Assembly (NCBI GenBank): GCA_023665755.1
Contig: JAMPDF010000001.1
Location: 344,181 to 408,180 of the forward strand
DNA length: 64,000 nucleotides
Reading direction: 5' to 3'
Source of the DNA: Prevotella sp.
GTDB taxonomy: Bacteria; Bacillota_I; Bacilli_A; ML615J-28; CAG-313
The notes beneath the pieces were generated by a model. That model saw only the letters and a list, made by a program, of their open reading frames with translations. It was not told the origin of the DNA and did not search any database. A program made the translations under genes and the position numbers. Positions 5,216 through 44,750 of this stretch are shown in pieces. The stretch's first letter is position 1. Each line of letters opens with the position of its first letter.

Positions 5216-5244
5216 TTTACTTGTCAAGCAATATGTGGTATAAT
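5216..5244 (+). promoter_or_regulatory. Sigma-A-type promoter with an extended -10 (TTTACT-17-TGgTATAAT) driving the rightward four-gene operon.
   Basis: -35 at 5216..5221 and -10 at 5239..5244. A CTTGTCAAG palindrome overlaps the spacer. Confidence 0.4.
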
Positions 5245-5276
5245 GTTAGTGTAAATAAATGAAAGAGGTATTAAAT

Positions 5277-5531
5277 ATGACAAGAAAAATGGTAAACGTT
5301 ATTTATAGAAATAATAAATTAGGAAACATTTCTATCGATAGCAAGATTATTTCAAGATTGTATACTGAAGCTGATAGTGATATGACTTATGCAAACGCAT
5401 ATATGAGCGAATTGCAAAGAGATCAAAAGAAAGAAATTGAAAGCCAAATAATGGAGAATTTAATTAACGGAAATTATTTGGTTGCTGAAGAATTAATCAA
5501 CAATGAATATTCTTGGGTTTTAAAAAAATAA
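5277..5531 (+). CDS. Hypothetical phage accessory protein.
   Basis: ORF with RBS GAAAGAGG before the ATG at 5277. The ATG at 5259 has no RBS. Confidence 0.4.
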   Translation: MTRKMVNVIYRNNKLGNISIDSKIISRLYTEADSDMTYANAYMSELQRDQKKEIESQIMENLINGNYLVAEELINNEYSWVLKK

Positions 5532-6875: not shown

Positions 6876-7734
6876 AAATAAACATTTTGTTGAAAAATTT
6901 GTTCAAAATGTTCTTCTTTTCCTTAAATGCACCAACTTTATATCGCATTATTATTTTTTCACCTTCATTATATCCAGTATAACAATTAACAGCTATTAAT
7001 AACGTTCTCCAAACTGTGTCATAAACTCCTTGCCATCCACCTTTTAACACTCCCAATCCAATTGATGCAAATAAGCAGGAAAACAAGACAGAAAAAGCAA
7101 TTTTAGAGGTAGAATCACGGGCTATAACTTTATTAGGCTCAAAGCTTCCTATTTCGTCTGTAAACGTCTTTTGACCAATGCTAAATGATCGTTCATCTAT
7201 TTTTAAGCACTTTACATTTTTAGTTGTTATATCAAAATCATTATTTGGCATCTCTACTACATTGTTTTTTTCTGGTATATTTAAATATTTGTAGTATTTG
7301 AGCCACTCGATACATTTGTCTTTTTCTTTAATTAGTTCATTTCTTTTGTTTTCTTCTTTCGCTTTTGAAATTTGAATATTTAATTTTTCAATATACGCAT
7401 CACATCGATAGATTAAATTTTCAATTTTAATCATATCATACAAATCATTTGTTAAAAATGTGTTATCAACTGTTCTAAAATCTGTTTTTACGTCATCTTC
7501 TAACGCTATTACTTCGTCTAATTTACTTGTAGCATTTCTCCCTACTGCAATGAAAGCAAAATAAGGAGTTAATGTCAGAACCTGTGTAGTTGCAATATTG
7601 CTCCAAAATGATGGATTTTTTAATGTGTCAAAAGAAAAATCTAATGTTATTAAAGATAATAGTATGTTGACAAATAATACTGCCAATATAACTAATCCAA
7701 TGATGAAATACAATGTTTTATCATTTTTGTTCAT
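6853..7734 (-). CDS. Membrane protein with an N-terminal TM helix and C-terminal TM helices.
   Basis: 293 aa. Hydrophobic segments at both ends. It is the last gene of the minus-strand block. Confidence 0.45.
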   Translation of the reverse strand: MNKNDKTLYFIIGLVILAVLFVNILLSLITLDFSFDTLKNPSFWSNIATTQVLTLTPYFAFIAVGRNATSKLDEVIALEDDVKTDFRTVDNTFLTNDLYDMIKIENLIYRCDAYIEKLNIQISKAKEENKRNELIKEKDKCIEWLKYYKYLNIPEKNNVVEMPNNDFDITTKNVKCLKIDERSFSIGQKTFTDEIGSFEPNKVIARDSTSKIAFSVLFSCLFASIGLGVLKGGWQGVYDTVWRTLLIAVNCYTGYNEGEKIIMRYKVGAFKEKKNILNKFFNKMFILGKIKSE

Positions 7735-9070: not shown

Positions 9071-9077
9071 CCTGTGC

Positions 9078-9446
9078 CTATTCTACTTTCCAAACCAAAT
9101 CTATTATTTCATTTCTACAGTCCCAAATATCATACAGAGTTCCATCGATGCCACAAGTAAGGTGACCTTCTACACGTATGATGTAGATACCTTTAGGATT
9201 TTGGTTTAAAAATTCTTCAATTGTAAAGCCATGATAGCTTTCTATTCGCACCAACTTAAATACTTCATCTAGTAAATGCTTATAACAGCATACGCATAAC
9301 TCTTCGCACTCAAATAATTCGCCAATTAGTTCTAATTTGTGTTTAGTATCGTAATAATCAAGCCCTACACCAAGTGATATCGCCCTGCAAACACAGTCTT
9401 CTTCTCTTTTCCCAAGTGGTTGAAGATTCAAGAATTTGTAACGCAT
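9078..9446 (-). CDS. Cys-rich hypothetical protein.
   Basis: 122 aa. CVC..CVCC cluster. Stop/start overlap with the upstream gene. Confidence 0.4.
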   Translation of the reverse strand: MRYKFLNLQPLGKREEDCVCRAISLGVGLDYYDTKHKLELIGELFECEELCVCCYKHLLDEVFKLVRIESYHGFTIEEFLNQNPKGIYIIRVEGHLTCGIDGTLYDIWDCRNEIIDLVWKVE

Positions 9447-10177
9447 TATTCTTCTTGGCTTTCCCCTTTGATGATTTCATAGAAATAAATGCATAGCTTT
9501 TCGCTAGGTGATACTTTTATATCGTCATCTTCAAAGAATTGTTTAGCCATTTTAATATAAGTATGTGGATCGTTAGCAATATTCTTGTGAATACTAATCA
9601 TCATTAAATAGACAAAGTAGAACTCATCTTCGCTAAATTCTTCAAATTTGACACCCGTTTCTTCTGCTTTTTTGACAACCATTTGCTTTGAAAGATGAAA
9701 GATATCTTTTGACTTTAATTTTTCAGCAAATTCTTTTAGCTCTTGCTTGTATTCTTCTTCCCCATCTTTGTAATCACTTGAATACTGATCATAATTGCCG
9801 TCATATGCTCTATCATATCCTCTATAATCTTCATATCTATGTGGTGAATTAATCATGCCATATACTTCATATTGCATAGGTCTTGGATAGTCTCGATATT
9901 GTTCCATATGACGACCATCGTTCCCACCATAATTGGCATTGTCACGACCATCATATCGACTATCATATCTTGAATTATTTGCTCTGTAATCCATTTCTTC
10001 CATAGCACGGTCTCTCCCACTTCTTGAAGAAACATATCCACCTCTTGAGCCATACGGATTTCTTCCATCTTGGCTATATCTTCTGTCTCCGCCTCTTTGG
10101 TCTCGTCCATCCATAGAACGATCACGACGACCTCTTCTGCGATCGATTCTGTCTCTTAAATATCTGTTGTTAGCCAT
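9446..10177 (-). CDS. Protein with an Arg/Asp/Tyr/Gly-rich, intrinsically disordered N-terminal half and a C-terminal folded domain.
   Basis: 243 aa. RRGRRDRSMDGRDQRGGDRRY... low complexity. The nested ORF at 9853..10125 is an artefact of the repetitive DNA. Confidence 0.5.
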   Translation of the reverse strand: MANNRYLRDRIDRRRGRRDRSMDGRDQRGGDRRYSQDGRNPYGSRGGYVSSRSGRDRAMEEMDYRANNSRYDSRYDGRDNANYGGNDGRHMEQYRDYPRPMQYEVYGMINSPHRYEDYRGYDRAYDGNYDQYSSDYKDGEEEYKQELKEFAEKLKSKDIFHLSKQMVVKKAEETGVKFEEFSEDEFYFVYLMMISIHKNIANDPHTYIKMAKQFFEDDDIKVSPSEKLCIYFYEIIKGESQEE

Positions 10178-20350: not shown

Positions 20351-21229
20351 TTAAGCCTCTTTTGCTGCTGATGTTCTTGCAGGATCTGCTGCTGATTTGT
20401 GAACAATGACTGCTTTTTCTGCTCCTGGTTCTACCCAGCAATCGAAATAAATACCAATATCTACTTGTGATCTTCTTCCACCAAATCCTGGTATTTTGTC
20501 AAAGTATACATTTTCTTGATATTTGGGCATAAATGCAATTGCTGCATTTGGAGCTAAAATATAGTCGACATTTTCAGGAAAATATTTGTCTGGGATTTGT
20601 TTAATCTTTACCTTTATGTTGTCGCCATATGTTTCGACATTTGCGCTTAAATCTCCATTCCAATTTCCAAGTGAAATTGATCCTGTTGCTTTAGCTGCTT
20701 GTTTTAATTTTCTTGCAGCAGATGTTTTGATGTTCAAAACTACAGCTTCTGCTACGCCTAAATCAAATAAATAATCTATGTCAGCATCTAAAGCTGCTTC
20801 AATATTATCTTTGGTTAATGCGCTAGTATTAGTTTTTACTCCTGTCGTTGAAGCAACGTTTTGAATATTGTATTTGTCTACATATGGAATTAAAATCGTA
20901 TTTTCATACTTTTTGCCTTGAGAAACAATTTCAATACCTTGCGCTTCCTCTCCATCCATTTTGTCAATTACCAAAGAATTACCTTTATCTTGGGTTAATG
21001 TCTTTTCAACCCATCCTGAATTAATGTCAATTCTTTTATAACCTGTTTCTCTGTCAAAGTCGCCTAGCGTTTCAGAACCAAATGTTGTTTGTCTATATTT
21101 TACTGTCCTAGCTCCAACAGCTACATTTGGTTTTAGCCAATCATAGGTAAATGATCTTGCTTGGAATATTTTCGCTAATTCTGCGTCGTTATTTAAGTAT
21201 CTTACTGCACTTTCAATGTTGTTTGGCAT
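20351..21229 (-). CDS. Major capsid protein.
   Basis: 292 aa, directly downstream of the scaffold gene. Size and position are typical. Confidence 0.5.
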   Translation of the reverse strand: MPNNIESAVRYLNNDAELAKIFQARSFTYDWLKPNVAVGARTVKYRQTTFGSETLGDFDRETGYKRIDINSGWVEKTLTQDKGNSLVIDKMDGEEAQGIEIVSQGKKYENTILIPYVDKYNIQNVASTTGVKTNTSALTKDNIEAALDADIDYLFDLGVAEAVVLNIKTSAARKLKQAAKATGSISLGNWNGDLSANVETYGDNIKVKIKQIPDKYFPENVDYILAPNAAIAFMPKYQENVYFDKIPGFGGRRSQVDIGIYFDCWVEPGAEKAVIVHKSAADPARTSAAKEA

Positions 21230-21252: not shown

Positions 21253-21816
21253 TTATAAATTTCTAAATGCTGCAAACTCGTCTGTTTTGCCATCTGTTCC
21301 ACCAACTTGTTTGCCATGTTCTGAACCCACACTCTTTGGGACTTGATTGTTAAAAAGCCAATCATTGTCTTTCTTGATTTGCGCAATTTGTTCGTCTAAT
21401 CCTGTGTACTTCCCGTCTTTAAACTCACATTTGCTTAAATCAAGCATTCCTTTTAAGGCATTTGCGTTTTTAGCTCCACTTTTACCAAGTACTGATTCAA
21501 GTGTGTAGTCTTTTTGCATCTGAAGAACTTTGGCATCGTGTTCTTCTTTTGCTTTCGTGTTTGCTGCTTGTAGTTCAGCAATTTGTTTGGTAAGTTCTTC
21601 ATTTCCTTTAGCTGCTTTTTGAAGTTCCACAAGTTGAGAATCTCTGCTAGCAATTTGATTCCTTAATTCCTTGTTGTTTTCGTTTACCTCATCAAATCGA
21701 GCTTTTGGAACGTAGTCCTTTCCTTCAGCAAAGAAATAATCCTTGCCCTCAAATTTTGAAGAGATTGTTTTGTACAATTCTTCGCCTAATACTTGTTTTA
21801 AATTTTCTAATGACAT
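21253..21816 (-). CDS. Phage scaffolding protein (DUF4355-like).
   Basis: The N-terminus LGEELYKTISSKFEGKDYFFAEGKDYVPKARFDEVN and the coiled-coil body resemble scaffold proteins. RBS AAAGGAGAAAA. Confidence 0.55.
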   Translation of the reverse strand: MSLENLKQVLGEELYKTISSKFEGKDYFFAEGKDYVPKARFDEVNENNKELRNQIASRDSQLVELQKAAKGNEELTKQIAELQAANTKAKEEHDAKVLQMQKDYTLESVLGKSGAKNANALKGMLDLSKCEFKDGKYTGLDEQIAQIKKDNDWLFNNQVPKSVGSEHGKQVGGTDGKTDEFAAFRNL

Positions 21817-21996
21817 AATTTTCTCCTTTCGTTTTTTAACGTGGTACGACCACGAAATAGATTAGTTATTCATGCTTTTAACGTGTTTTGCTCACGAGGT
21901 ATAATAAAAGACCCCATTGCTGGAGTCTTGTTATTATTAAGAAGGCACAGGTAGGCGAAAGAGAATACCTACCTGAGATAGTTTAATGCCTTGTCT

Positions 21997-22022
21997 AGGG
22001 CAAAAAGAAAAGAACGCAAAAT
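21997..22022 (-). terminator. Rho-independent terminator after the small gene 22038..22328.
   Basis: AAAGAACGC..GCGTTCTTT hairpin followed by TCTTTTTG on the minus strand. Confidence 0.45.
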
Positions 22023-22037
22023 AAGCGTTCTTTAATA

Positions 22038-22328
22038 CTATAAATCTGTATAATCTTCAAAATATTTTCTGTTTTCTTTTGTCATTGTTATTTCACCATC
22101 TTTAATTGCTTTTTCTAAAATCTCAATCTTTTTTTCTATATAATCTGGATTCCCATTTTCTGTTTTTAGCATTGTTAGTAATTTATTTTGCAATTCAGAA
22201 TATGGAACAAACATATAAAATTCTAATGACAACCAATCTAATAAAGTTTGTCCACCTTCTTCATATGCCGTTTGTTTCATAATTTCGCAAATATTATCAC
22301 CTGGTTTTAAAATTTCATCATTTTTCAT
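22038..22328 (-). CDS. Small acidic protein overlapping the 3' end of the MuF-like gene. It is a candidate immunity protein.
   Basis: 96 aa. Its start overlaps the MuF-like gene stop by 11 nt. Confidence 0.4.
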   Translation of the reverse strand: MKNDEILKPGDNICEIMKQTAYEEGGQTLLDWLSLEFYMFVPYSELQNKLLTMLKTENGNPDYIEKKIEILEKAIKDGEITMTKENRKYFEDYTDL

Positions 22329-24363
22329 TTTTAATCCTTTCTAGAGCAATGTCCTTATATTTTTCCAAAGAATCATATGTTTTTGGGAACAACTTCTTAA
22401 ATTCATCTAATTGTTCATTTGCATTTTTAACTTTTAAAGCCATAAAATTTGCAAACAATTCAGCAGATATAGTTTCCAAATCTCTAAATGCAGAACCATG
22501 TCCCCAACTTACACCATATCCTTTTCTTATATTTTCTTTTGATGTTGCTCTTCCATATGTCATTGCATCTATCATATCATAAAATAATATATTTTTGTTT
22601 TCTTCCTCTCCATTTTTTAAATTTAATGCATTTTCTTTTATTTGTTCATATTCCTTTTTACTGTATTTTTCAGCCTCTTTACTATATTTCATTATTTCTC
22701 TTACTTGCAATTTATTTGGGTTTTCAAGAATTTTCCCTTCTTTAACAACACATCCACTTAATTCACTTAATTTAGAATCATATAGTTCTTGGGCTAATTT
22801 AGAATTATTTGTTTTCCATTCAAAACTTTTTTTCTGAGTTTCTAAAATTTTGGGTGTAATTTTTCCAAACAATTCTTTTATTCTTTCGCCTGTATAATCA
22901 TCAAAAGTCTCTGCAGTAAGTGAATTTTTTAATTCTTCAGTTGAACCTATTCTTCCTAAATAAAATGACCCATCTTGCTCTTGGGCTAATTGATCTATAT
23001 AATGTCCTATTTCGTGATATGCAGTCATTTTACCTTCAAATGTATCTGTGTTGTTAATAGAAATTGTATTACCTTGCTGATAAGCTCTTTTGGATGAATG
23101 TATAAATTTTAAGTCTTTATTTTTAGAACCAACAAGATTGTATAATTCAGCAACAATTTTATCATTTGTTTGTACATTTTCAAATGCTTTATTTACCCAT
23201 TTATCATCTTTTAGTTTTCCAGTAATTTCTATTTTTACAGGCTCTATTTTAATTATATTATTTGTTTCCTTGTTGCCAAAGGGGTTTATTCTATTCTGTC
23301 TTTCTTCATCACTAATTCTTGTGCGCCATCTGTAGAAAGCACGTCCGTTCTTGATTGAATACTCTTCGTATCTCTTGTTCAAATTCTGCCACTGCTTGCG
23401 CATTTTAGATGCTTCTTCAGTAAAGCCTTGCTGCCTTAATAGTGTTTCAGTTGTCTTTTTGTGGCGAATCTCATTCTCATACTGTCTTTGCCTTTGGTCG
23501 ATTCTGTATTCCTTTTGAATTTCCTTTGATGTGAAATGTCTAGGAGCAACACTACCTTTTTCCCATTCGATGAGATAATGCCTGCAATTATAGCCATTGA
23601 TGATGGAATTACCACCATTTGCATTTAAAGCATTTTCTATTGGCTCGTATTTAATACCATCAATTGTGCCACTTGTTCCATCTAAACTCCAAAGCCTACC
23701 TTGAAAAGGAGCACAACGGGGCGATGCATCCGCATGACTACTTGTCCATACCAACTTGATGCCTAAAGCCTTGTACTGCTCCAAATCTTTCATATTTGCT
23801 TCGTATCTTACAGCCATTTCCACTTTGTTACGAAGACTAATTGCTCTACCATCTTTAGCAATATACTTCACAGGCTCGCTTGCAAGAAGTTTGGTTTGTT
23901 CAATAACTTTGCTGTCGTAATCCTTAATCAATGCTAAGCCTTTTTTAGCGTTGCTAATGCGATTTCTAAATTCTGTGATAACTTTTCTTTGATTAATGTT
24001 TCCGTTTAAATATTCGGCGTAAATTGCCGTCAAATCAACAGTATAAGTGTTGTTACTAAGTGTTGTTCCTGTTCCTACAGGAAATGCCTTAATAACTTGA
24101 TTGATAAACATTTGATTGACAATTTTCATGTTGTAGTTATACTCATACAACATTTTATTTGCTGATTGAATCAAATTTCTGCGAAATACTGCTTGCGTTT
24201 GCTCATTCGCAAATCTCATACAGTAATTATTAATTACAGCCTGTATCTGCTTTTGGCTTGCTCCGCTGATAATAAGCTTCTTGATTTCTAGTGTTGCTGT
24301 TTCGAGTAAGACTAGTTGTTCGCCAGCTACATTTTGGCTTGGGCTATTGAGTATCCTCGCCAT
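22318..24363 (-). CDS. Minor head protein with an N-terminal SPP1 gp7 / Mu F-like domain and an extra C-terminal domain (about 300 aa) carrying an HEIGH zincin-like motif.
   Basis: 681 aa. The MuF-like block WTSSHADASPRCAPFQGRLWS lies downstream of the portal. The C-terminal part contains MTAYHEIGHYIDQ. Confidence 0.6.
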   Translation of the reverse strand: MARILNSPSQNVAGEQLVLLETATLEIKKLIISGASQKQIQAVINNYCMRFANEQTQAVFRRNLIQSANKMLYEYNYNMKIVNQMFINQVIKAFPVGTGTTLSNNTYTVDLTAIYAEYLNGNINQRKVITEFRNRISNAKKGLALIKDYDSKVIEQTKLLASEPVKYIAKDGRAISLRNKVEMAVRYEANMKDLEQYKALGIKLVWTSSHADASPRCAPFQGRLWSLDGTSGTIDGIKYEPIENALNANGGNSIINGYNCRHYLIEWEKGSVAPRHFTSKEIQKEYRIDQRQRQYENEIRHKKTTETLLRQQGFTEEASKMRKQWQNLNKRYEEYSIKNGRAFYRWRTRISDEERQNRINPFGNKETNNIIKIEPVKIEITGKLKDDKWVNKAFENVQTNDKIVAELYNLVGSKNKDLKFIHSSKRAYQQGNTISINNTDTFEGKMTAYHEIGHYIDQLAQEQDGSFYLGRIGSTEELKNSLTAETFDDYTGERIKELFGKITPKILETQKKSFEWKTNNSKLAQELYDSKLSELSGCVVKEGKILENPNKLQVREIMKYSKEAEKYSKKEYEQIKENALNLKNGEEENKNILFYDMIDAMTYGRATSKENIRKGYGVSWGHGSAFRDLETISAELFANFMALKVKNANEQLDEFKKLFPKTYDSLEKYKDIALERIKNEK

Positions 24364-26032
24364 CGTCGTCTACTCCTATATTTCCATCTGTGTTAAATTC
24401 CATTTGCAAAAGCGTTGGGTCTTCCATACCCATGTTGTTTTCAAACTTAATCTTTGTGACTTCATCGAGTATTTGATCATCTGTCCAATCAGGATGAAGC
24501 TTTTTGACACAGGTCTCAACTGATGCTAATCCGCTTGTTTTAGCAGTTGCCCATCTTGTTATGACATTCGTTTCATCTTCTACTACATACTCGCCAAAAT
24601 CAAATGTAATATCCGCATTGTCAAAGTTTACTTCTTCTACATCTAATCCTTCTTGTTTTGCTCCAGCTTTCTTGACAAGCCAATTGTTGAAAGCAAGAAG
24701 TTGTAAAGTTAACTCACTTAAGAAAGGTTTCCAATAGTTGTTGATTTTATCTTTTCTAGTTTCAAGAGTTACCCTATTTCGTTCCTTTTGTGATTGTTCT
24801 CCAGCATTAATTGCCTCAAGCCCTGTAATACCTAAAGCAAGAGGGGATAATCCTGCAAGATTAATCGCAGTAATTAAGCAATTCTTGTATTTTTCAATCA
24901 ATGATACTGTCTTATCGTCAATTGTCTGTATGAGCATTTGATTATTGGCGTTTTGATCCATACTGCCACCTACTAATTGATAGTTGGTAATAAATGCCAT
25001 ATCTATTGCAAGTTCGTTTCCATCTTCGTCTTTAGGTATCATTGAAGTTGGCATATAACGAATGGTCTTGTTGTTTCTAATTTCGCTTACTAACTCGCTA
25101 TATGCCTCGTCTAATGCATCGAAGGAATCAATTGCACCTTGATAATCACTCGCTCCATAAACAGAACCTGGAAATTCATTATTTGGCTTTTTGTTTGGCT
25201 TGTGGAAAGCAATCATTCCTTTTAAACCTTCAAATCGATAATACTCTTCTAATTCGGCAGTTTGAGGAATAGTCGTTAAAGGTACTTCCTTTTCTTTGCC
25301 ATCAACAAGGATTTGATAAAGCGTATTTACAATCAGTGCATCGCCGTTTTCATCAGTGGTGTATTTTTCTTCATATCGATATTTTTCCTTTTGTTCTGTC
25401 ACATACCTTGTTTTAAAAATGATGGCTGTGGTGACACCTCGTTCAACAATTGCTTCTGCTTGTGTTAAGTCGCTAGCTTCAATAATTGGATATTGGCTCA
25501 AGTCTAAGTTGTAGTTAAATTTGATAAACCCCTCACCACACCAAGATTCTTTTACTGCGGTAAGATGAAACACCTCTTTAGCCTTTGTTTTGTCAAATAG
25601 AGCGTTTAAAACGTCTTGAGCCTTATTGCTTTCTTCCTCGTTCTTATCTTTTGAAATTTGCCCATCTTCGGCTTTATAAACAGTTACCTCAGGCTTAAAT
25701 CCAGCCCCAAAAATAATAGTACCCATTTTGTTGGATATCAATTTTGGTATGCCTGTATGACGTTTAATTGTTTTATCTAAAGCGAGCTGCCAAAAGTAAT
25801 TTAAATTTGAAGAAAACGGATTCTTTATGTAAAAGGCACGAATTAAGTCGCTATTCCCTGTATTCCATATTTGGTATTCTTGAATTTTCCTTGTAAAGTA
25901 ATTCTTTCCTAATACGTTGCTTAAATCTACTACTTGTTCTGCATCGTAATTATCTTGTCTTTTGATCATATTTAAATCTCTCCTTAATTTGTCCAGTCTC
26001 TTCTTTGTGAAATAATCCTTGATTCTTCCCAT
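24344..26032 (-). CDS. Portal protein.
   Basis: 562 aa between TerL and MuF, as in SPP1-like head modules. Confidence 0.55.
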   Translation of the reverse strand: MGRIKDYFTKKRLDKLRRDLNMIKRQDNYDAEQVVDLSNVLGKNYFTRKIQEYQIWNTGNSDLIRAFYIKNPFSSNLNYFWQLALDKTIKRHTGIPKLISNKMGTIIFGAGFKPEVTVYKAEDGQISKDKNEEESNKAQDVLNALFDKTKAKEVFHLTAVKESWCGEGFIKFNYNLDLSQYPIIEASDLTQAEAIVERGVTTAIIFKTRYVTEQKEKYRYEEKYTTDENGDALIVNTLYQILVDGKEKEVPLTTIPQTAELEEYYRFEGLKGMIAFHKPNKKPNNEFPGSVYGASDYQGAIDSFDALDEAYSELVSEIRNNKTIRYMPTSMIPKDEDGNELAIDMAFITNYQLVGGSMDQNANNQMLIQTIDDKTVSLIEKYKNCLITAINLAGLSPLALGITGLEAINAGEQSQKERNRVTLETRKDKINNYWKPFLSELTLQLLAFNNWLVKKAGAKQEGLDVEEVNFDNADITFDFGEYVVEDETNVITRWATAKTSGLASVETCVKKLHPDWTDDQILDEVTKIKFENNMGMEDPTLLQMEFNTDGNIGVDDDGEDTQ

Positions 26033-27417: not shown

Positions 27418-27811
27418 CTATTTTTCTCGCCATCAAAGCTTCAAGAGTAGCATTGTGTGTAGGATTTTCTTTTATTTCTGCATCTATTTCTACTTTGTTT
27501 GGATTCTCTCCTACTAAATTCGTTAAATATTCAGCAGCTCTTGTATCGCCATTTGTCGCCTTAATCAATTGCCCTACAAGCATTGCCATTTGATTGTTCA
27601 TATCTTTCGCTTTTATTCCCATTTTCTCGAGTTTAGCAATTACTTTAGGATCTTTAACTTTAAGAGATAATAAAGCATCAGCAGCTTCTGCCATAGCTTT
27701 TCTTTTCCTTTTCGCCTTGCCACTTGCAATGCCACCATTGCGACCTCTCTCTCTTGCTTCTTCCGTGGTTCTTATGAGCTTTAAATTGTTAATATTTCCC
27801 TTATTAGGCAT
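27398..27811 (-). CDS. Putative terminase small subunit.
   Basis: 137 aa basic protein (RGRNGGIASGKAKRKRK) immediately upstream of TerL. Confidence 0.45.
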   Translation of the reverse strand: MPNKGNINNLKLIRTTEEARERGRNGGIASGKAKRKRKAMAEAADALLSLKVKDPKVIAKLEKMGIKAKDMNNQMAMLVGQLIKATNGDTRAAEYLTNLVGENPNKVEIDAEIKENPTHNATLEALMARKIDGIDDE

Positions 27812-28938
27812 TATTCAATCAACTCTGCTTTCTTTCCTGTCAATGTCTCCCAACGTTTGATAATAACGTCGCAATATTTAGGATCTAATTCCATCATATA
27901 GCATTTGCGATTTAACTGTTCACAAGCTATAAGAGTTGAGCCAGAACCACCAAATAAGTCTAGTATATTTTGTTTGCCATACAAACGAATATATTTAGCA
28001 CAAAGTTCAACTGGTTTCGAGTAACTTAACTCATTATCGTGGTCTTTCTTACCAATATAACACTTTGAATATGTTTCTTTTGGAAATCCTTTATTTGGAT
28101 TTTGTTTTCCTATAATTGCAATGTATTCGCAATCTGTCATCATATGACCTTTATAATTTGGAACAGTACAAAGTTTTTTATAAAAGCATAAATCGTAAGG
28201 TTTATTATTATTTTCTGCAAGTTCAATATATTTTTTAATCAAAGTTTTATTATGACAATATATATTTGTCTCACTTTGCAAAATAAGTTTTGATGGATCA
28301 AAAGCATCGACTTTATTTTCTCTAATCTGCTTCATAGAGTTTGCTTTTTTGAGTATTCCACCTCCTTGTGTTTTAAGTTGATAAGGTGGATCTGTAAATG
28401 TTAATTCGCATTTATTGCCATCAAGTAATTTGTCAATATCATTCTGTTCAAATGAATCACCACACATTAAACGATGCTCACCTAATTGCCAAATATCGCC
28501 AAGTTTAGTAATTGGTTCGTTTTCTTCATCAACTTGTGGCGCTTCATCTTCAATGATTTCCTTTTCTTCTTGTTCTTCCAGCATATCAAAACCAAAAATA
28601 GACATATCCAAATCAATGCCTTCTAATTCTAAATTTAATAAATCCATATCCCATTCAGCAAGCTCTGCTGTTTTGTTATCTGCTAGCCTAAATGCTTTGA
28701 TTTGTTCCTCGTTCAAATCGTCAGCAATAATAACAGGAACTTCTTTAAGTTTTAATTTCTTTGCAGCTTTGTATCTTGTATGTCCTGCCACTATTTCATA
28801 ATTACTATCTATGACAATTGGAACTTTAAAACCAAATTCCTTAATGCTTTCTGCTACTGCGTTTACTGCAGAATCATTCTTTCTTGGATTATTCTTATAA
28901 GGCTTTAATTTGCTAACCTCAATATTTAAAACATTCAT
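27811..28938 (-). CDS. ParB-like nuclease domain fused to a DNA N6-adenine/N4-cytosine methyltransferase.
   Basis: N-terminal ParB/Srx motif (KPYKNNPRKN..GHTRYKAA). TDPPY motif (LTFTDPPYQ). SAM-binding FGGSGST near the C-terminus. Confidence 0.75.
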   Translation of the reverse strand: MNVLNIEVSKLKPYKNNPRKNDSAVNAVAESIKEFGFKVPIVIDSNYEIVAGHTRYKAAKKLKLKEVPVIIADDLNEEQIKAFRLADNKTAELAEWDMDLLNLELEGIDLDMSIFGFDMLEEQEEKEIIEDEAPQVDEENEPITKLGDIWQLGEHRLMCGDSFEQNDIDKLLDGNKCELTFTDPPYQLKTQGGGILKKANSMKQIRENKVDAFDPSKLILQSETNIYCHNKTLIKKYIELAENNNKPYDLCFYKKLCTVPNYKGHMMTDCEYIAIIGKQNPNKGFPKETYSKCYIGKKDHDNELSYSKPVELCAKYIRLYGKQNILDLFGGSGSTLIACEQLNRKCYMMELDPKYCDVIIKRWETLTGKKAELIE

Positions 28939-31508: not shown

Positions 31509-32074
31509 TATACTATTTCCTCCTTAAGGGTATATTTAAAATATTTTTCAATTTCACTTCTTACTTTTTTAATACCTTCCTGATATGCTAATTCATAGCT
31601 TTCATAATAATAATCCTTATTATCAATTACATAAGAATTTGATTTAATATCACCTTGATATCTATAAATATCTAATCCTACTATAGTACCAAAATAATTT
31701 ATTTGATAATTATATTTTCCTTCTTCTATCTTCAAAATTGGGTCTCTACTAAAATTTTTTCTTTGAGCCTTACAAAATTTATTTAAATCTTCATCACTAG
31801 TTAAACAACTTTTTAAAAATTCTTTATTAATAAAATCAGAATTTTCAATATCTGAAAAATTATAATATGATACAACTTCCAAATAAAAATAATTAAAAGT
31901 AGTAGGGATTATCTTTTTCGCTATGTCAATCTTTTCATCTATAGTGATTTCTTTTGTTTTATCAATTTCTTGAAGTTGATTTTTTAATTCTTCTATTTCT
32001 TTTTTTAATTGATTATTTTCATTCATAGCATTTTCTAATTCTGCTAAAATATATTCATCTATTGTTTTTATCAT
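31508..32074 (-). CDS. Hypothetical protein with an N-terminal coiled-coil.
   Basis: 188 aa. Confidence 0.35.
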   Translation of the reverse strand: MIKTIDEYILAELENAMNENNQLKKEIEELKNQLQEIDKTKEITIDEKIDIAKKIIPTTFNYFYLEVVSYYNFSDIENSDFINKEFLKSCLTSDEDLNKFCKAQRKNFSRDPILKIEEGKYNYQINYFGTIVGLDIYRYQGDIKSNSYVIDNKDYYYESYELAYQEGIKKVRSEIEKYFKYTLKEEIV

Positions 32075-37069: not shown

Positions 37070-38013
37070 TAGAAATATCCATTTCTTTGAGGCGCTTGTT
37101 GTTTTGGAGCAGTAGCTTCTGTATATGCTTTTAAAATATCCTCATTTTCGCCCATTTTTGGCTTTTCTTCTTCGACATTATTAGTTTTATCAAACGTTAG
37201 CATTTCGGCTTTATTTGCCTTATTTTCGACCTCGTTTCGCACTTCTTGAGCAGTTGATTCAACAAAATCTTGGTTTTGCATTTCGTATATCTCATCTTCA
37301 TTCTTAATAAGTGTTTCTGCAAGTAAGTCATCATCGTTTGACGTTTGAAGAATCATTTTGATCAAACGATTAATTGCTGTTCTCTTCATAAATTCACCTT
37401 CAAAATCTGTGTGATCTCTCTTATTACCCTTACTTGGATTTTTGAGCCAGGATTCTTTGATTTCAGATATCGTCATAACAGCACTTCTTTCAATTCCGTT
37501 TACAGTAACTGTTGCATACGCTCCTACACGTTTTCCTTTTAACTTGTTCTCCCAGCTTGTTTTGTGTGACAAAATAATTTCTTCGCCTAATTCGTTATGA
37601 TCCAGTTCTACTTCGTCACCTTCATAGATAATCGTTCCAATTGGCTCATTTTCAATTCCTTTTAATCTTTTGATGGAAGAACATTTGCCAAAATAGGATG
37701 TGTACCAACCAAGTTTATTGCCATATACGATGAAATACCCTTGTTTTTTCACAGGATTTAAGCCAAGAATTGCCATTTCTAAAAGAGAATTAACAACACT
37801 TTCTTTGGTGCAGACTTCTAAAGCTGGTCTACCATTGTTATCTTTCGTGTCTTGAATAATTAGCCAAGCAGAAGATAAAGCATTACCTGCAGAATAATTT
37901 TTAGGAAGGTCGAGCTTTCCTTGATTTGTTAGCTCAACAATTCTATTTAATACTTTTTCTGCTGGCGTTTTTTCCACTAATACTTGGTTTTGATTTTGTG
38001 TTTGAACTTGCAT
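37069..38013 (-). CDS. RecT-family single-strand annealing protein.
   Basis: 314 aa. Block SAWLIIQDTKDNNGRPALEVCTKESVVNSLLEMAILGLNPVKKQGYFIVYGNKLGWYTSYFG resembles the RecT core. Genomic context also fits. Confidence 0.55.
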   Translation of the reverse strand: MQVQTQNQNQVLVEKTPAEKVLNRIVELTNQGKLDLPKNYSAGNALSSAWLIIQDTKDNNGRPALEVCTKESVVNSLLEMAILGLNPVKKQGYFIVYGNKLGWYTSYFGKCSSIKRLKGIENEPIGTIIYEGDEVELDHNELGEEIILSHKTSWENKLKGKRVGAYATVTVNGIERSAVMTISEIKESWLKNPSKGNKRDHTDFEGEFMKRTAINRLIKMILQTSNDDDLLAETLIKNEDEIYEMQNQDFVESTAQEVRNEVENKANKAEMLTFDKTNNVEEEKPKMGENEDILKAYTEATAPKQQAPQRNGYF

Positions 38014-42745: not shown

Positions 42746-43087
42746 ATGCTAAAAAATAATATAAAATTTCTAAGAAAAGAACAAAAAATTACAATAAGAG
42801 ATTTAGAAGAGAAAGTACATATTAATAGAACAACATTATCAAGAATGGAAAACGGATTACAAAATATTAGTGATGAATATCTTCATACACTATCTAATTT
42901 TTTCAATGTGTCTACAGACTACTTATTAGGACTATCAGATATTCGCAATCCTGAAAAGGAATTGAATAAACAACAAGAATCAGATCCTATCTTCTTCTCA
43001 TTATATGATGAAGTAAAGGAATTAACTGAAGAACAAAAGGAGGAGATATTAGATATAATCAAAAAATTAAAAGCTTTTAAAAAATAA
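42746..43087 (+). CDS. cI-like XRE-family repressor.
   Basis: The HTH QKITIRDLEEKVHINRTTLSRMENG sits at the N-terminus. A TATAAT at about 42709 lies upstream. The gene is divergent from the early operon. Confidence 0.6.
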   Translation: MLKNNIKFLRKEQKITIRDLEEKVHINRTTLSRMENGLQNISDEYLHTLSNFFNVSTDYLLGLSDIRNPEKELNKQQESDPIFFSLYDEVKELTEEQKEEILDIIKKLKAFKK

Positions 43088-43116
43088 CGCATTATACATA
43101 TTTAGGAGGGGGAATA

Positions 43117-43317
43117 ATGTTAAAGGAGGCGAATTTAAAAAGTATCAATGGTATTGTTGTTAAAATAGACAATACTTTTTACATCGTTTACGACGAAAAA
43201 CTTAGTGATGGCGAAAAAGAAAAACTAATTAATTGTCTACAAACTCATATCAAACTAAACAGGTTTGATTTCAAACTCATTGGCAATGAAATCATTGAAA
43301 GTGAGGTAATAAAATGA
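43117..43317 (+). CDS. Small protein between the repressor and the integrase.
   Basis: 66 aa. RBS GGAGGGGG. It overlaps the integrase start. Confidence 0.35.
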   Translation: MLKEANLKSINGIVVKIDNTFYIVYDEKLSDGEKEKLINCLQTHIKLNRFDFKLIGNEIIESEVIK

Positions 43318-44750
43318 AAACAGTGCTCTACATAAGAGTATCAACTAAAGAGCAAGCCAAAGAAGGCTTTTCAATTCCGTTTCAAAAAGAAAAACTATGC
43401 AAGTATTGCGAAATGATGAATTGGGATATAGTCGATATTTATTCGGATGAAGGAATATCAGGCTCTACAATTGAAAAAAGACCTGCAGCAACACGTATGC
43501 TACAGGATGCAAAAAAGAAATTATTTGAAAATATATTAATATTAAGAGTAGACAGACTTTGCAGAAACACAAAGGATTTACTCGAAATTGTTGATTTGCT
43601 AAAAGAATACGACATAAGTCTAAATGCAATTGATCAACAAATTGACTATAAAACAAGCATCGGTAAAATGACGCTTACCATTCTAGGTACTTTTGCTGAA
43701 TTTGAACACTCTATCATTCACGAACGTATGATGGAAGGAAAAAGGCAAAAAGCAACTACAACAGGCATCAAGATGATAGGTAGACGTGTTCCATATGGAT
43801 ATGACTACATCGACAAAAAACTAATTGCTAATCAATTTGCACCAACAATTAAACTAATATTTGAAAAAGTAGCTGAAGGATACGGATATAATTCAACAGC
43901 TACTTTTTTACGCAAAAATAATGTGCCAACTATTGATGTGTTAGACTGGAATAGAAATCAGATAAAAAAGATTATCAATAATAAAGTATACATGGGTCAT
44001 TGTTGTGTCAAATTTGATAGAATTGAAGTTGTTGATGTAGTAGCGACAAACGTTGAACCTATTGTAAGCGAGGAACTTTGGCACAAAGCAAACGATATTC
44101 AATCGTTTAAAACTAAAAATGGCATCAAAAAATATGCCTATGATGATTTCATATTTGCTGATGTCCTCTACTGTTCAAGGTGTGGCTGGAAATTATCATC
44201 AAAGAAATATAAAAGAAAAGGAAAAAATAAGGATGATTATACATTCTACCGCTATTATAAATGCATCTACAACGAGTGGCATTTAAGCAATCCAGTATGC
44301 AATACTAAAATTGTAAATGCTGAAAAATTTGAAAAAGCATTTATTGAATTTATTAAGCAATACCATATCCAATTAAAGAAAGAGAAAAAAAAGGAAAATG
44401 ATCCTTCTTTTAATGATGATTTTTTGGAAAAAGAATTAGCAAATTTAGTAAGGCAAAAATCAAAATTATTGGATAAATATTTAAACGGCTTTATTGAGGA
44501 TGAGATGTACTTTTCTAAAAATAGCACATTATCAGAAGAAATTAAAAGTTTAAAAGAAAAGATTGAAAGTAAAAAGTATATTAATAAGGAAGAAAAAGAA
44601 ATAGATCTAAATTATTTGGAAAGCATAAAAGTGATATTAAGCGATATTTGGGAAATAATGAGCGATAAAGAAAAAAGAGTTTTTATATCGACAACTTTTG
44701 AAAAGATTTTAATTGATAATGGGCAAATAAAACAGGTAATATTTAGATAA
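43314..44750 (+). CDS. Large serine recombinase (phage integrase).
   Basis: Resolvase-type N-terminus MKTVLYIRVSTKEQ..GFSIPFQ. Recombinase and zinc-ribbon region (CSRCGWKL). C-terminal coiled-coil. 478 aa, at the prophage edge. Confidence 0.8.
   Translation: MKTVLYIRVSTKEQAKEGFSIPFQKEKLCKYCEMMNWDIVDIYSDEGISGSTIEKRPAATRMLQDAKKKLFENILILRVDRLCRNTKDLLEIVDLLKEYDISLNAIDQQIDYKTSIGKMTLTILGTFAEFEHSIIHERMMEGKRQKATTTGIKMIGRRVPYGYDYIDKKLIANQFAPTIKLIFEKVAEGYGYNSTATFLRKNNVPTIDVLDWNRNQIKKIINNKVYMGHCCVKFDRIEVVDVVATNVEPIVSEELWHKANDIQSFKTKNGIKKYAYDDFIFADVLYCSRCGWKLSSKKYKRKGKNKDDYTFYRYYKCIYNEWHLSNPVCNTKIVNAEKFEKAFIEFIKQYHIQLKKEKKKENDPSFNDDFLEKELANLVRQKSKLLDKYLNGFIEDEMYFSKNSTLSEEIKSLKEKIESKKYINKEEKEIDLNYLESIKVILSDIWEIMSDKEKRVFISTTFEKILIDNGQIKQVIFR

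Follow-up and report, generated by a model that had tools for sequence, protein, structure and literature searches.

Does a phage minor head protein that ends in a protease-like domain, together with the small gene overlapping its 3' end, constitute a toxin and immunity pair carried in the capsid? The question arises from a prophage in a 64,000-nucleotide (nt) stretch of Prevotella sp. DNA (GenBank assembly GCA_023665755.1, contig JAMPDF010000001.1, positions 344,181 to 408,180; hereafter the window), in which the gene for a 681-amino-acid (aa) MuF protein is followed by an acidic 96-aa open reading frame (ORF), ORF96. An earlier interpretation of the letters alone (the sequence-only reading) had proposed a MuF carrier with a polymorphic C-terminal toxin and a downstream immunity gene, and all elements of this proposal that can be tested computationally held. 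We consider that the two genes probably form an exchangeable toxin/immunity cassette, in which a zinc-peptidase effector is carried by MuF, delivered with the capsid and paired with a cognate inhibitor. The features concerned are as follows.

22318..24363, minus strand: ORF of the 681-aa MuF-zincin protein (ORF call)
23296..24363, minus strand: N-terminal MuF carrier (MuF2 / Phage_min_cap2), aa 1-356 (PF06152 and DNA homology to locus L001)
22318..23295, minus strand: variable C-terminal module, aa 357-681, a short linker and then a predicted ATLF/M34-like zincin with a helical insert
23002..23016, minus strand: HEIGH (aa 450-454), within MTAYHEIGHYIDQ
22459..22461, minus strand: predicted ligand Glu, E635
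22038..22328, minus strand: ORF96, acidic 96-aa ORF (ORF call)

The N-terminal part of the protein has the MuF-like core that had been assigned to it. PF06152 (Phage_min_cap2), defined as MuF2 in PMC5576092, spans aa 20-335 (E 6.7e-22, 78.3 bits vs a cut-off of 26.3), and the protein also matches phrog_581, 'minor head protein'. The MuF N-terminal stretch is 72% identical at the aa level to the MuF N-termini of two related loci, L001 and L028. MuF polymorphic toxins have an N-terminal MuF-superfamily domain (PF04233, PF06152, MuF3 or MuF4) and a gene immediately 3' of the portal gene in the head module of a temperate phage. Both are found here: the MuF gene lies directly downstream of the portal gene, flanked by the genes for TerL, the scaffold and the major capsid protein (MCP).

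24344..26032, minus strand: portal gene (phrog_533, E 5.2e-58)
21253..21816, minus strand: scaffold gene (PF06810, E 1.8e-39)

The order TerS, TerL, portal, MuF, ORF96, scaffold and MCP, obtained from the ORF list and family searches, is canonical. Since a large serine recombinase and a CI-like helix-turn-helix protein are encoded at 42746-44750 and host genes (P-type ATPase, EF-G-like) lie beyond them, the element is an integrated temperate prophage. It would be of the siphovirus type, in a low-GC Firmicute.

The putative effector is the C-terminal module. The presence of MTAYHEIGHYIDQ in the 681-aa protein was confirmed, with its HEIGH at aa 450-454, and the extra C-terminal HExxH domain noticed earlier is a zincin by predicted fold and by profile. 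Residues 372-681 have no match in Pfam, PHROGs, NCBIfam or PADLOC, nor among PDB sequences (phmmer), and the window protein matches neither PF07737 (ATLF), even at E <= 1 and so short of the gathering score, nor PF18818 (MPTase-PolyVal). An exhaustive phmmer scan of 1.84 billion representatives returned just five proteins: P0001 (656 aa), colinear with the whole window protein at 39% identity; P0002, a 77-aa fragment; P0003 and P0005, standalone HExxH proteins; and P0004, a weak and probably spurious match. P0005, a distant homologue, comes near both families (PF07737, E 0.059, 13.5 bits vs 27.4; PF18818, E 0.079) and matches the C-terminal third of phrog_4728, 'head morphogenesis'. Via P0005, the zincin family reaches two GenBank phages, Streptococcus phage Javan351 (gp32/gp33; L037, MK448737.1) and Dulem virus 32 (L038, PP511597.1), both with the layout MuF, zincin and small ORF. 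Javan351 gp32 is labelled 'head morphogenesis protein, SPP1 gp7 family' and the Dulem virus 32 protein 'minor capsid protein'; the small partners of both are annotated only as hypothetical protein.

A word-indexed homology search with the C-terminal domain alone gave no match, which is probably a sensitivity artefact, as the collection does contain the close fragments P0006 (94%) and P0007 (82%); with alignment A1 as query, it gave only three matches, and a scan of viral contigs with A1 gave no confirmed relative. The full 681-aa protein is apparently not in the word-indexed collection; ORF96 is, through chromosomal copies. Upstream of the standalone zincin P0003, L017 encodes at 533-1267 a protein of 244 aa that matches no family and contains a Gly-rich GGPGSGNWGHIGIPGHWGGS motif.

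Among seven divergent family members (alignment A10; 16-35% identity), H450, E451, H454, D596 (DMxDA), H622 (GHG), E635 (E-L/A/F-F-A) and the Pro of FPKTY are invariant. An AlphaFold (AF2) model built on the seven-sequence alignment, with a predicted local distance difference test score (pLDDT) of 63.7 and a predicted template modelling score of 0.67, shows a helix, three strands, the HExxH helix and further on the Glu helix; a poorly modelled helical insert of roughly 130-170 aa lies between the two catalytic helices, which have pLDDT values of 77-93. Prediction from the single sequence was uninformative (pLDDT 36), and Foldseek found no significant match to the zincin model in the PDB. Searched against PDB sequences, the seven-sequence profile placed C. 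difficile PPEP-1/Zmp1 at the top (E 0.0085-0.05), with E-l-F-A-n of the family aligned on EFFAE and f-P-k-t-Y on CPQTY of PPEP-1, so that E635 falls on the first Glu of EFFAE. In anthrax lethal factor (LF), we take E735 to be this first Glu of EFFAE. The zinc ligands of LF are H686, H690 and E735, and E687 is the base (PMC5668564). By alignment, H450, H454, E635 and E451, respectively, would be their equivalents in the window protein. A reading in which the zinc-ligand position is an Asn (N639) was rejected, as a register check puts the invariant E635 on the ligand Glu. ATLF/M34 peptidases are characterized by HExxH with a downstream ligand Glu on a separate helix and by the ATLF core fold, and both are seen in the model. 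The domain is predicted to be a divergent M34/ATLF-like zincin with the fold of LF and the Pro-Pro endopeptidases (PPEPs), outside ATLF by Pfam's criterion.

ORF96 (pI 4.5, net charge about -8.5) overlaps the MuF stop by 11 nt (22318-22328) and is followed by its own terminator, a hairpin and U-tract at 22033..22009, as the sequence-only reading had described. Its position directly downstream and its size are those of MuF immunity genes, which are small ORFs of <150 aa. ORF96 has no family match in Pfam, PHROGs, NCBIfam or PADLOC and no tblastn match among GenBank phages. The co-occurrence with the zincin is strict: every homologue found of this zincin, MuF-fused or standalone, directly precedes a small acidic ORF (70-96 aa).

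L016: 95 aa, identical 11-nt overlap
L017: 91 aa, 4-nt overlap
L018: small ORF present
L028-L030 and L034: 96 aa
Javan351: 85 aa
Dulem virus 32: 70 aa, 11-nt overlap

Where the zincin is absent (L001/L002), the small ORF before the scaffold gene is absent as well. The partner ORFs are mutually homologous (L019 vs L016, E 2e-12) and have a common central motif, E-x-K-I-x-x-x-E-K-[AC]-I-K. ORF96 appears to be a divergent member of this family: BLASTP against the L019 partner gives E 0.007 over the motif, the hhalign match is weak, and only 2 of 2000 composition-matched shuffles score as high as ORF96 against a leave-one-out hidden Markov model of the other small ORFs (empirical p about 0.001). 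The proposed immunity gene thus travels with the zincin, including the standalone zincins and the two GenBank phages, and this co-occurrence, together with the selection on orphan copies described below, supports a candidate immunity role of ORF96.

A genome scan with the MuF alignment yielded 13 loci. Comparison of related prophages delimits the unit that is exchanged.

22005..23293, minus strand: swapped cassette of C-terminal module, ORF96 and terminator T1 (blastn vs L001; breakpoints of L028 vs L001)
22009..22033, minus strand: terminator-like hairpin T1, part of the cassette (U-tract to about 22000)

In L001/L002, the 72% identity is confined to aa 1-359 of the window protein, and the 698-aa MuF protein has an unrelated C-terminus. 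At the DNA level, the window is homologous to L001 (about 69%) over 27165 to 23294; the homology then breaks off and resumes at 22004, which corresponds to the base that follows the L001 MuF stop. The prophages at L028-L030 and L034 have the window-type C-terminus and the 96-aa ORF. L028 and L001 are 98% identical at the nt level up to MuF codon ~357, wholly different over the next 1292 vs 1029 bp, and homologous again right after T1. Since the breakpoints are shared and the sequences between them are unrelated, the C-terminal domain, ORF96 and T1 constitute a mobile unit, a 1.29-kb cassette exchanged as a whole. The window and L028 share 62-75% identity in their backbone proteins, against 89.5% in the zincin and 86.5% in ORF96; therefore, the cassette moved more recently than the backbone diverged. 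The C-termini of further MuF2 relatives differ again.

L004, L007, L011 and L013: no extension
L006 (1708-3797, Izemoplasmatales metagenome-assembled genome): small-alarmone-synthetase (SAS)/RelA-like domain (PDB 8vx3, E 7.6e-6), followed by a 96-aa ORF
L008: short His-rich domain
L009 and L010: zincin of the ATLF type (PF07737 at E 2e-4 and 6e-5, sub-threshold)

The sequence-only reading had named a C-terminal domain conserved for structure in all related MuF proteins as evidence against itself. The homologs are not of this kind: near-isogenic backbones end in an unrelated C-terminus, and in other relatives the C-terminal domain is missing, SAS/RelA-like or a different zincin. The variable C-terminal extension that arises by cassette exchange in MuF toxins is thus seen here too, and the MuF carrier with a polymorphic C-terminus and a downstream small ORF follows the pattern in PMC5576092. 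With the exception of L001/L002, the complete long MuF2 forms precede overlapping acidic small ORFs; most short forms have no small ORF, the exception being L011, with a 153-aa TTG ORF downstream. The layout of L006 resembles that of the validated Apk2-type MuF toxins. In L001/L002, the only signal in the alternative C-terminal module of ~340 aa (9071-10097) is a weak match to phrog_6629.

We propose the following mechanism. On the model of SPP1 gp7 and Mu F (summaries in PMC5576092 and PMC5512222), the MuF2 module (aa 1-356) would be the head-morphogenesis, portal-associated part, by which the protein would enter the capsid in a few copies; capsid packaging and injection are likewise supposed from these two proteins. 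The C-terminal module (aa ~385-681) would act as a zinc metallopeptidase, with H450, H454 and E635 binding zinc, E451 serving as the general base and the long helical insert separating the two catalytic helices; its toxin role is predicted from the M34-like fold and the intact HExxH...E. ORF96, translationally coupled by the 11-nt overlap, would be the cognate inhibitor that restrains the peptidase in the producing cell, and in a recipient cell it would neutralise the peptidase arriving with the phage DNA.

Such pairs have precedents. MuF polymorphic toxins with downstream immunity genes have been described, 20% of them with metallopeptidase domains (Jamet et al. 2017, PMC5576092), and one pair, Apk2/IapK of an S. 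pneumoniae prophage, where Aph1 is a further immunity protein, has been validated by experiment (PMC12226406). The window protein is like the MuF polymorphic toxins in its N-terminal MuF2 domain, its gene after the portal in a prophage, its swapped C-terminus and the <150-aa ORF directly downstream. It is unlike those described in that its zincin clade has no Pfam, PHROG or NCBIfam model and only the five relatives noted above. To our knowledge, no metallopeptidase-type MuF toxin/immunity pair has been tested experimentally, only the (p)ppApp-synthetase type. Thus, the architecture is known; the zincin clade and the partner family are unannotated and rare.

Compared with LF and the PPEPs (MEROPS M34, PF07737), the window zincin has the helical insert of roughly 130-170 aa and an additional invariant Asp and His (DMxDA and GHG), and it would be intracellular and phage-delivered, whereas LF and the PPEPs are secreted. 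We know of no dedicated small inhibitor gene for LF or the PPEPs. The MPTase domains of polyvalent proteins (Iyer et al. 2017, PMC5512222; PF18818) resemble the window domain in that inserts of variable kind separate the HExxH and Glu helices of a zincin core and in their link to MuF and virion delivery; some of their clades have an Asp three residues after HExxH. Unlike these giant polyvalent proteins, the window protein has a simple two-domain architecture and leaves PF18818 unmatched (only P0005 comes near it), and its conserved small partner gene is not a described feature of polyvalent MPTases.

If ORF96 is an antidote, is it also kept without the toxin? Orphan members of its family were found by a search with the small-ORF alignment, followed by inspection of the genomic contexts; the results cover few lineages and come from a search seeded with the ORF96 family. 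The loci L024-L027, on large bacterial contigs (GCA_023664905.1 among them), encode a protein with 100% identity to ORF96; its gene has a type II-A cas9-cas1-cas2-csn2 operon and array on one side and a tRNA-synthetase/YabP/YabQ block on the other.

21982..22593 of the window, minus strand: segment 97-98% identical to CRISPR-abutting remnants in other genomes (613 bp in L024-type loci)
L024 1510-3735 (>30 repeats), L025 2909-3742, and L026: CRISPR arrays, type II-A, repeat GTTTGCTAGGTATGCTAAATATGATAAATACTATAC
L019 5001-5499, L024 3735-4345, L031 4600-5255 and L033 4960-5177: phage remnants at CRISPR trailers
L019-L023: orphan locus, 77-aa zincin remnant and 90-aa ORF
L031/L032: orphan locus, remnant of about 130 codons and 84-aa ORF, after an unrelated cas9 locus
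L033, L035 and L036: orphan locus, 16-codon remnant and ORF frameshifted to 58 aa

The 613-bp segment directly abuts the last, degenerate CRISPR repeat. Compared with the window, its zincin remnant differs by 7-14 changes, among them a frameshift, a nonsense codon and a deletion of 7 nt, and the 56 nt downstream by 4-5 (11-19 over the 321 nt of flanks), whereas the 291-nt ORF96 has 0-1, which is synonymous. By our calculation, the probability that all 12 changes in L024 miss the ORF is about 4e-4. The substitution pattern indicates purifying selection on the orphan ORF96 copies, and an intact orphan ORF96 beside a decaying toxin remnant would be as expected of an immunity gene. Selection on ORF96 without a functional zincin fits protection against an incoming protein and, together with the near-identical backbones that lack the cassette, argues against a purely morphogenetic role. 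Truncated 3' toxin fragments with an intact immunity-like gene, and different alleles at the same locus, are also known from the orphan modules of contact-dependent inhibition (CDI), Rhs and type VI and type VII secretion systems (T6SS/T7SS); unlike these, the orphans described here lie in chromosomes of potential phage hosts, at type II CRISPR trailers, and not downstream of a full-length toxin.

The remnants, 16 to about 130 codons long, are always at the trailer end of type II CRISPR loci and oriented as the array. Orphans were met only beside type II cas operons or arrays, in three different downstream neighbourhoods, and since the junctions recur in independent assemblies, they are not chimeras. 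Cas1 of L019 and L025 are 92% identical and their small ORFs 30%, whereas L019 and L031 have Cas1 proteins 32% identical and small ORFs 84.5% identical; this discordance of the Cas1 and small-ORF phylogenies implies more than one installation or exchange of the module at CRISPR trailers. Spacers in the arrays, 30 nt long, match the prophage at 93-100%, with protospacers at window 5239-5268, 5494-5521, 7389-7436, 20916-20946, 31780-31813, 37904-37933 and other sites, and the array-bearing bacteria have therefore met this phage lineage. We suggest tentatively, as a possibility with more against it than for it, that type II CRISPR trailers recurrently capture and exchange the partner gene of a protease delivered with the capsid, and that selection maintains the gene there, where read-through from the array could transcribe it. 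Candidate causes of the location are spacer- or repeat-mediated recombination with the infecting phage, selection for expression by array read-through, and a functional connection of the protease to CRISPR-Cas. In the literature searched, with a search only partly aimed at orphan immunity genes, no immunity-like orphans at the trailers of CRISPR arrays were found.

The same loci bear on the main rival to an antibacterial toxin, an anti-defence effector: the injected zincin would cleave a host defence protein, possibly a component of type II CRISPR-Cas, and ORF96 would be its inhibitor, captured by bacteria at CRISPR loci. The confinement of the orphans to type II loci in three neighbourhoods, the phylogenetic discordance with its repeated installation or exchange, and the spacers against this phage all agree with such a role, and, according to a proposal of Iyer et al. 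(PMC5512222), zincins delivered with the virion act on targets in the host as it is invaded. However, the assignment of a substrate is conjectural, and the adjacency to CRISPR could be mechanistic (recombination at arrays) or a defence-island effect. Moreover, a handful of lineages were sampled with a search seeded from the ORF96 family, and the standalone zincin and small-ORF pairs of L017 and L018 lie on contigs too short to reveal a CRISPR link. On this evidence, we judge an anti-defence role unlikely.

Alternatively, the zincin could be a cis-acting or morphogenetic protease that acts on MuF, the scaffold, the capsid or, for self-release as proposed for P1 DdrB, on itself, with ORF96 as a chaperone or timing inhibitor and no role in the recipient cell. 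Autoprocessing has been proposed for virion-associated polyvalent MPTase domains (PMC5512222), the annotation of some actinophage MuF proteins is that of a fused capsid maturation protease, and the translational coupling suggests stoichiometric co-production. This explanation is nevertheless improbable. Both the zincin and ORF96 are missing from prophages whose portal and MuF N-terminus are 98% identical and whose scaffold and capsid genes are the same, so the pair is dispensable for assembly, and a chaperone role leaves unexplained why ORF96 is under selection in chromosomes without a functional zincin or nearby phage head genes.

It is more improbable still that ORF96 is an independent moron, such as an anti-CRISPR-like small acidic protein placed between the MuF and scaffold genes, functionally unrelated to the HExxH domain. 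ORF96 is indeed small and acidic, its homologues adjoin CRISPR arrays, and anti-CRISPR genes are located in the head-gene region of Mu-like Pseudomonas phages. However, it co-occurs with the zincin family in every case found, including standalone zincins outside MuF, mostly with an overlap of the stop and start codons; the zincin domain and ORF96 are exchanged together; and no aca-type helix-turn-helix gene, the usual companion of anti-CRISPR genes, is adjacent to ORF96. An active Cas9 inhibitor beside an array of 30+ spacers with perfect matches to a circulating phage would also be paradoxical. Finally, that the HExxH domain is a degenerate, catalytically dead structural appendage, and ORF96 and its chromosomal copies neutral prophage debris, is scarcely credible: the domain matches no curated peptidase model, F626 stands in place of the family Tyr and the chromosomal loci do contain decaying phage sequence, but HExxH, the ligand Glu, D596 and H622 are invariant in members at 16-35% identity, substitutions in the chromosomal copies avoid ORF96 (0-1 of 12-20 changes) and the cassette is better conserved than the phage backbone.

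Several points weigh against the toxin and immunity pair that we favour. Its toxicity, the proteolytic activity and the direct binding of ORF96 to the zincin are what we infer from the data above. The aromatic residue of GHGxxYW, a Tyr in most members at -9 from the Glu, is a Phe in the window (F626) and in L028. In LF, the catalytic Tyr, Y728, lies ~7 residues before the ligand Glu. If F626 corresponds to this Tyr, the activity could be reduced; with a spacing of -9 vs -7, the equivalence is uncertain. In hhalign comparisons with the ATLF-type zincins of L009/L010, just the HExxH or the Glu-helix motifs were aligned, with a probability <10%, and because of these short, low-probability alignments we claim no specific relationship to that clade. 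ORF96 has no BLASTP similarity to the L016 partner, and a shuffle test with a single partner was not significant (z 1.5), so its family membership, significant by the profile test only, depends on one motif. The long alternative C-terminus of L001/L002 is not accompanied by a small ORF, so that a long MuF protein does not universally imply an immunity gene.

Two families without earlier annotation are thereby defined: the M34-like zincins with their large insert, and their acidic partners of ~90 aa. MuF toxins are widespread in prophages of gut and pathogenic Firmicutes, and this locus offers a well-delimited metallopeptidase-type cassette with natural 'isogenic' controls, L001-type prophages without the cassette and L028-type prophages with it. 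The CRISPR-trailer orphans, which could not be foreseen from the window alone, are the part most deserving of follow-up. If functional, they would provide direct evidence, from genomes, that the domain delivered with the virion is active in recipient cells, which is the central open question about MuF toxins, and would link CRISPR loci to defence against injected phage proteins. The bacteria would then combine CRISPR immunity against this phage lineage with a protein 'antidote' to its injected effector. In the strongest version, the zincin would target the CRISPR-Cas machinery, and the orphan inhibitor would be the host's counter to a virion-borne anti-CRISPR protease.

The region between ORF96 and the scaffold gene contains further features.

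21817..22004, minus strand: conserved structured intergenic spacer upstream of the scaffold gene, phage backbone
21908..21929, minus strand: second terminator-like hairpin, in the backbone spacer
22372..22400, minus strand: weak sigma-70-like site TTAAGA-17-TATGAT (9/12 matches), within the 3' end of the zincin sequence and 44 nt ahead of the ORF96 start

T1 directly follows the ORF96 stop, has no counterpart in L001 and is present after every ORF96-family gene examined. Two terminator-like hairpins were found in the spacer vs 0.3 expected in shuffles. The structured spacer of about 200 nt in the sequence-only reading is real, with a folding energy of -63 kcal/mol for the 224-nt spacer RNA (z = -5.3 vs shuffles) and a compensatory change in its long hairpin in the alignment with L001 and L028. 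However, it is not part of the pair, since 21817..22004 is backbone that is also present in the relatives without the cassette. A match to the PreQ1 riboswitch (Rfam) at 21822-21859 (minus strand), upstream of the scaffold ribosome-binding site, was rejected as probably due to chance (22 bits vs a gathering score of 39, E 0.037); L001 and L028 share the small hairpin into which this stretch folds.

The sigma-70-like site is weak, as five such sites were found vs 3.5 expected. It is kept in the chromosomal copies L024, L019 and L031 and lost in L033, where the ORF is frameshifted, but this conservation is not independent evidence because the site overlaps the conserved FPKTYDS codons. The candidate site could drive ORF96 independently of the late operon. 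The T1 stems are identical in the window and L019 (5502-5527), and the loop is inverted (TTATTTT vs AAAATAA), which looks like a hairpin flip or template switch; L033 (~5275-5300) was also compared.

Directly upstream of the terminase small subunit gene, the prophage encodes a fusion of ParB-N and an N6/N4 DNA methylase (27811-28938, minus strand), and fusions of this type are typical anti-restriction or epigenetic accessory genes of phages.

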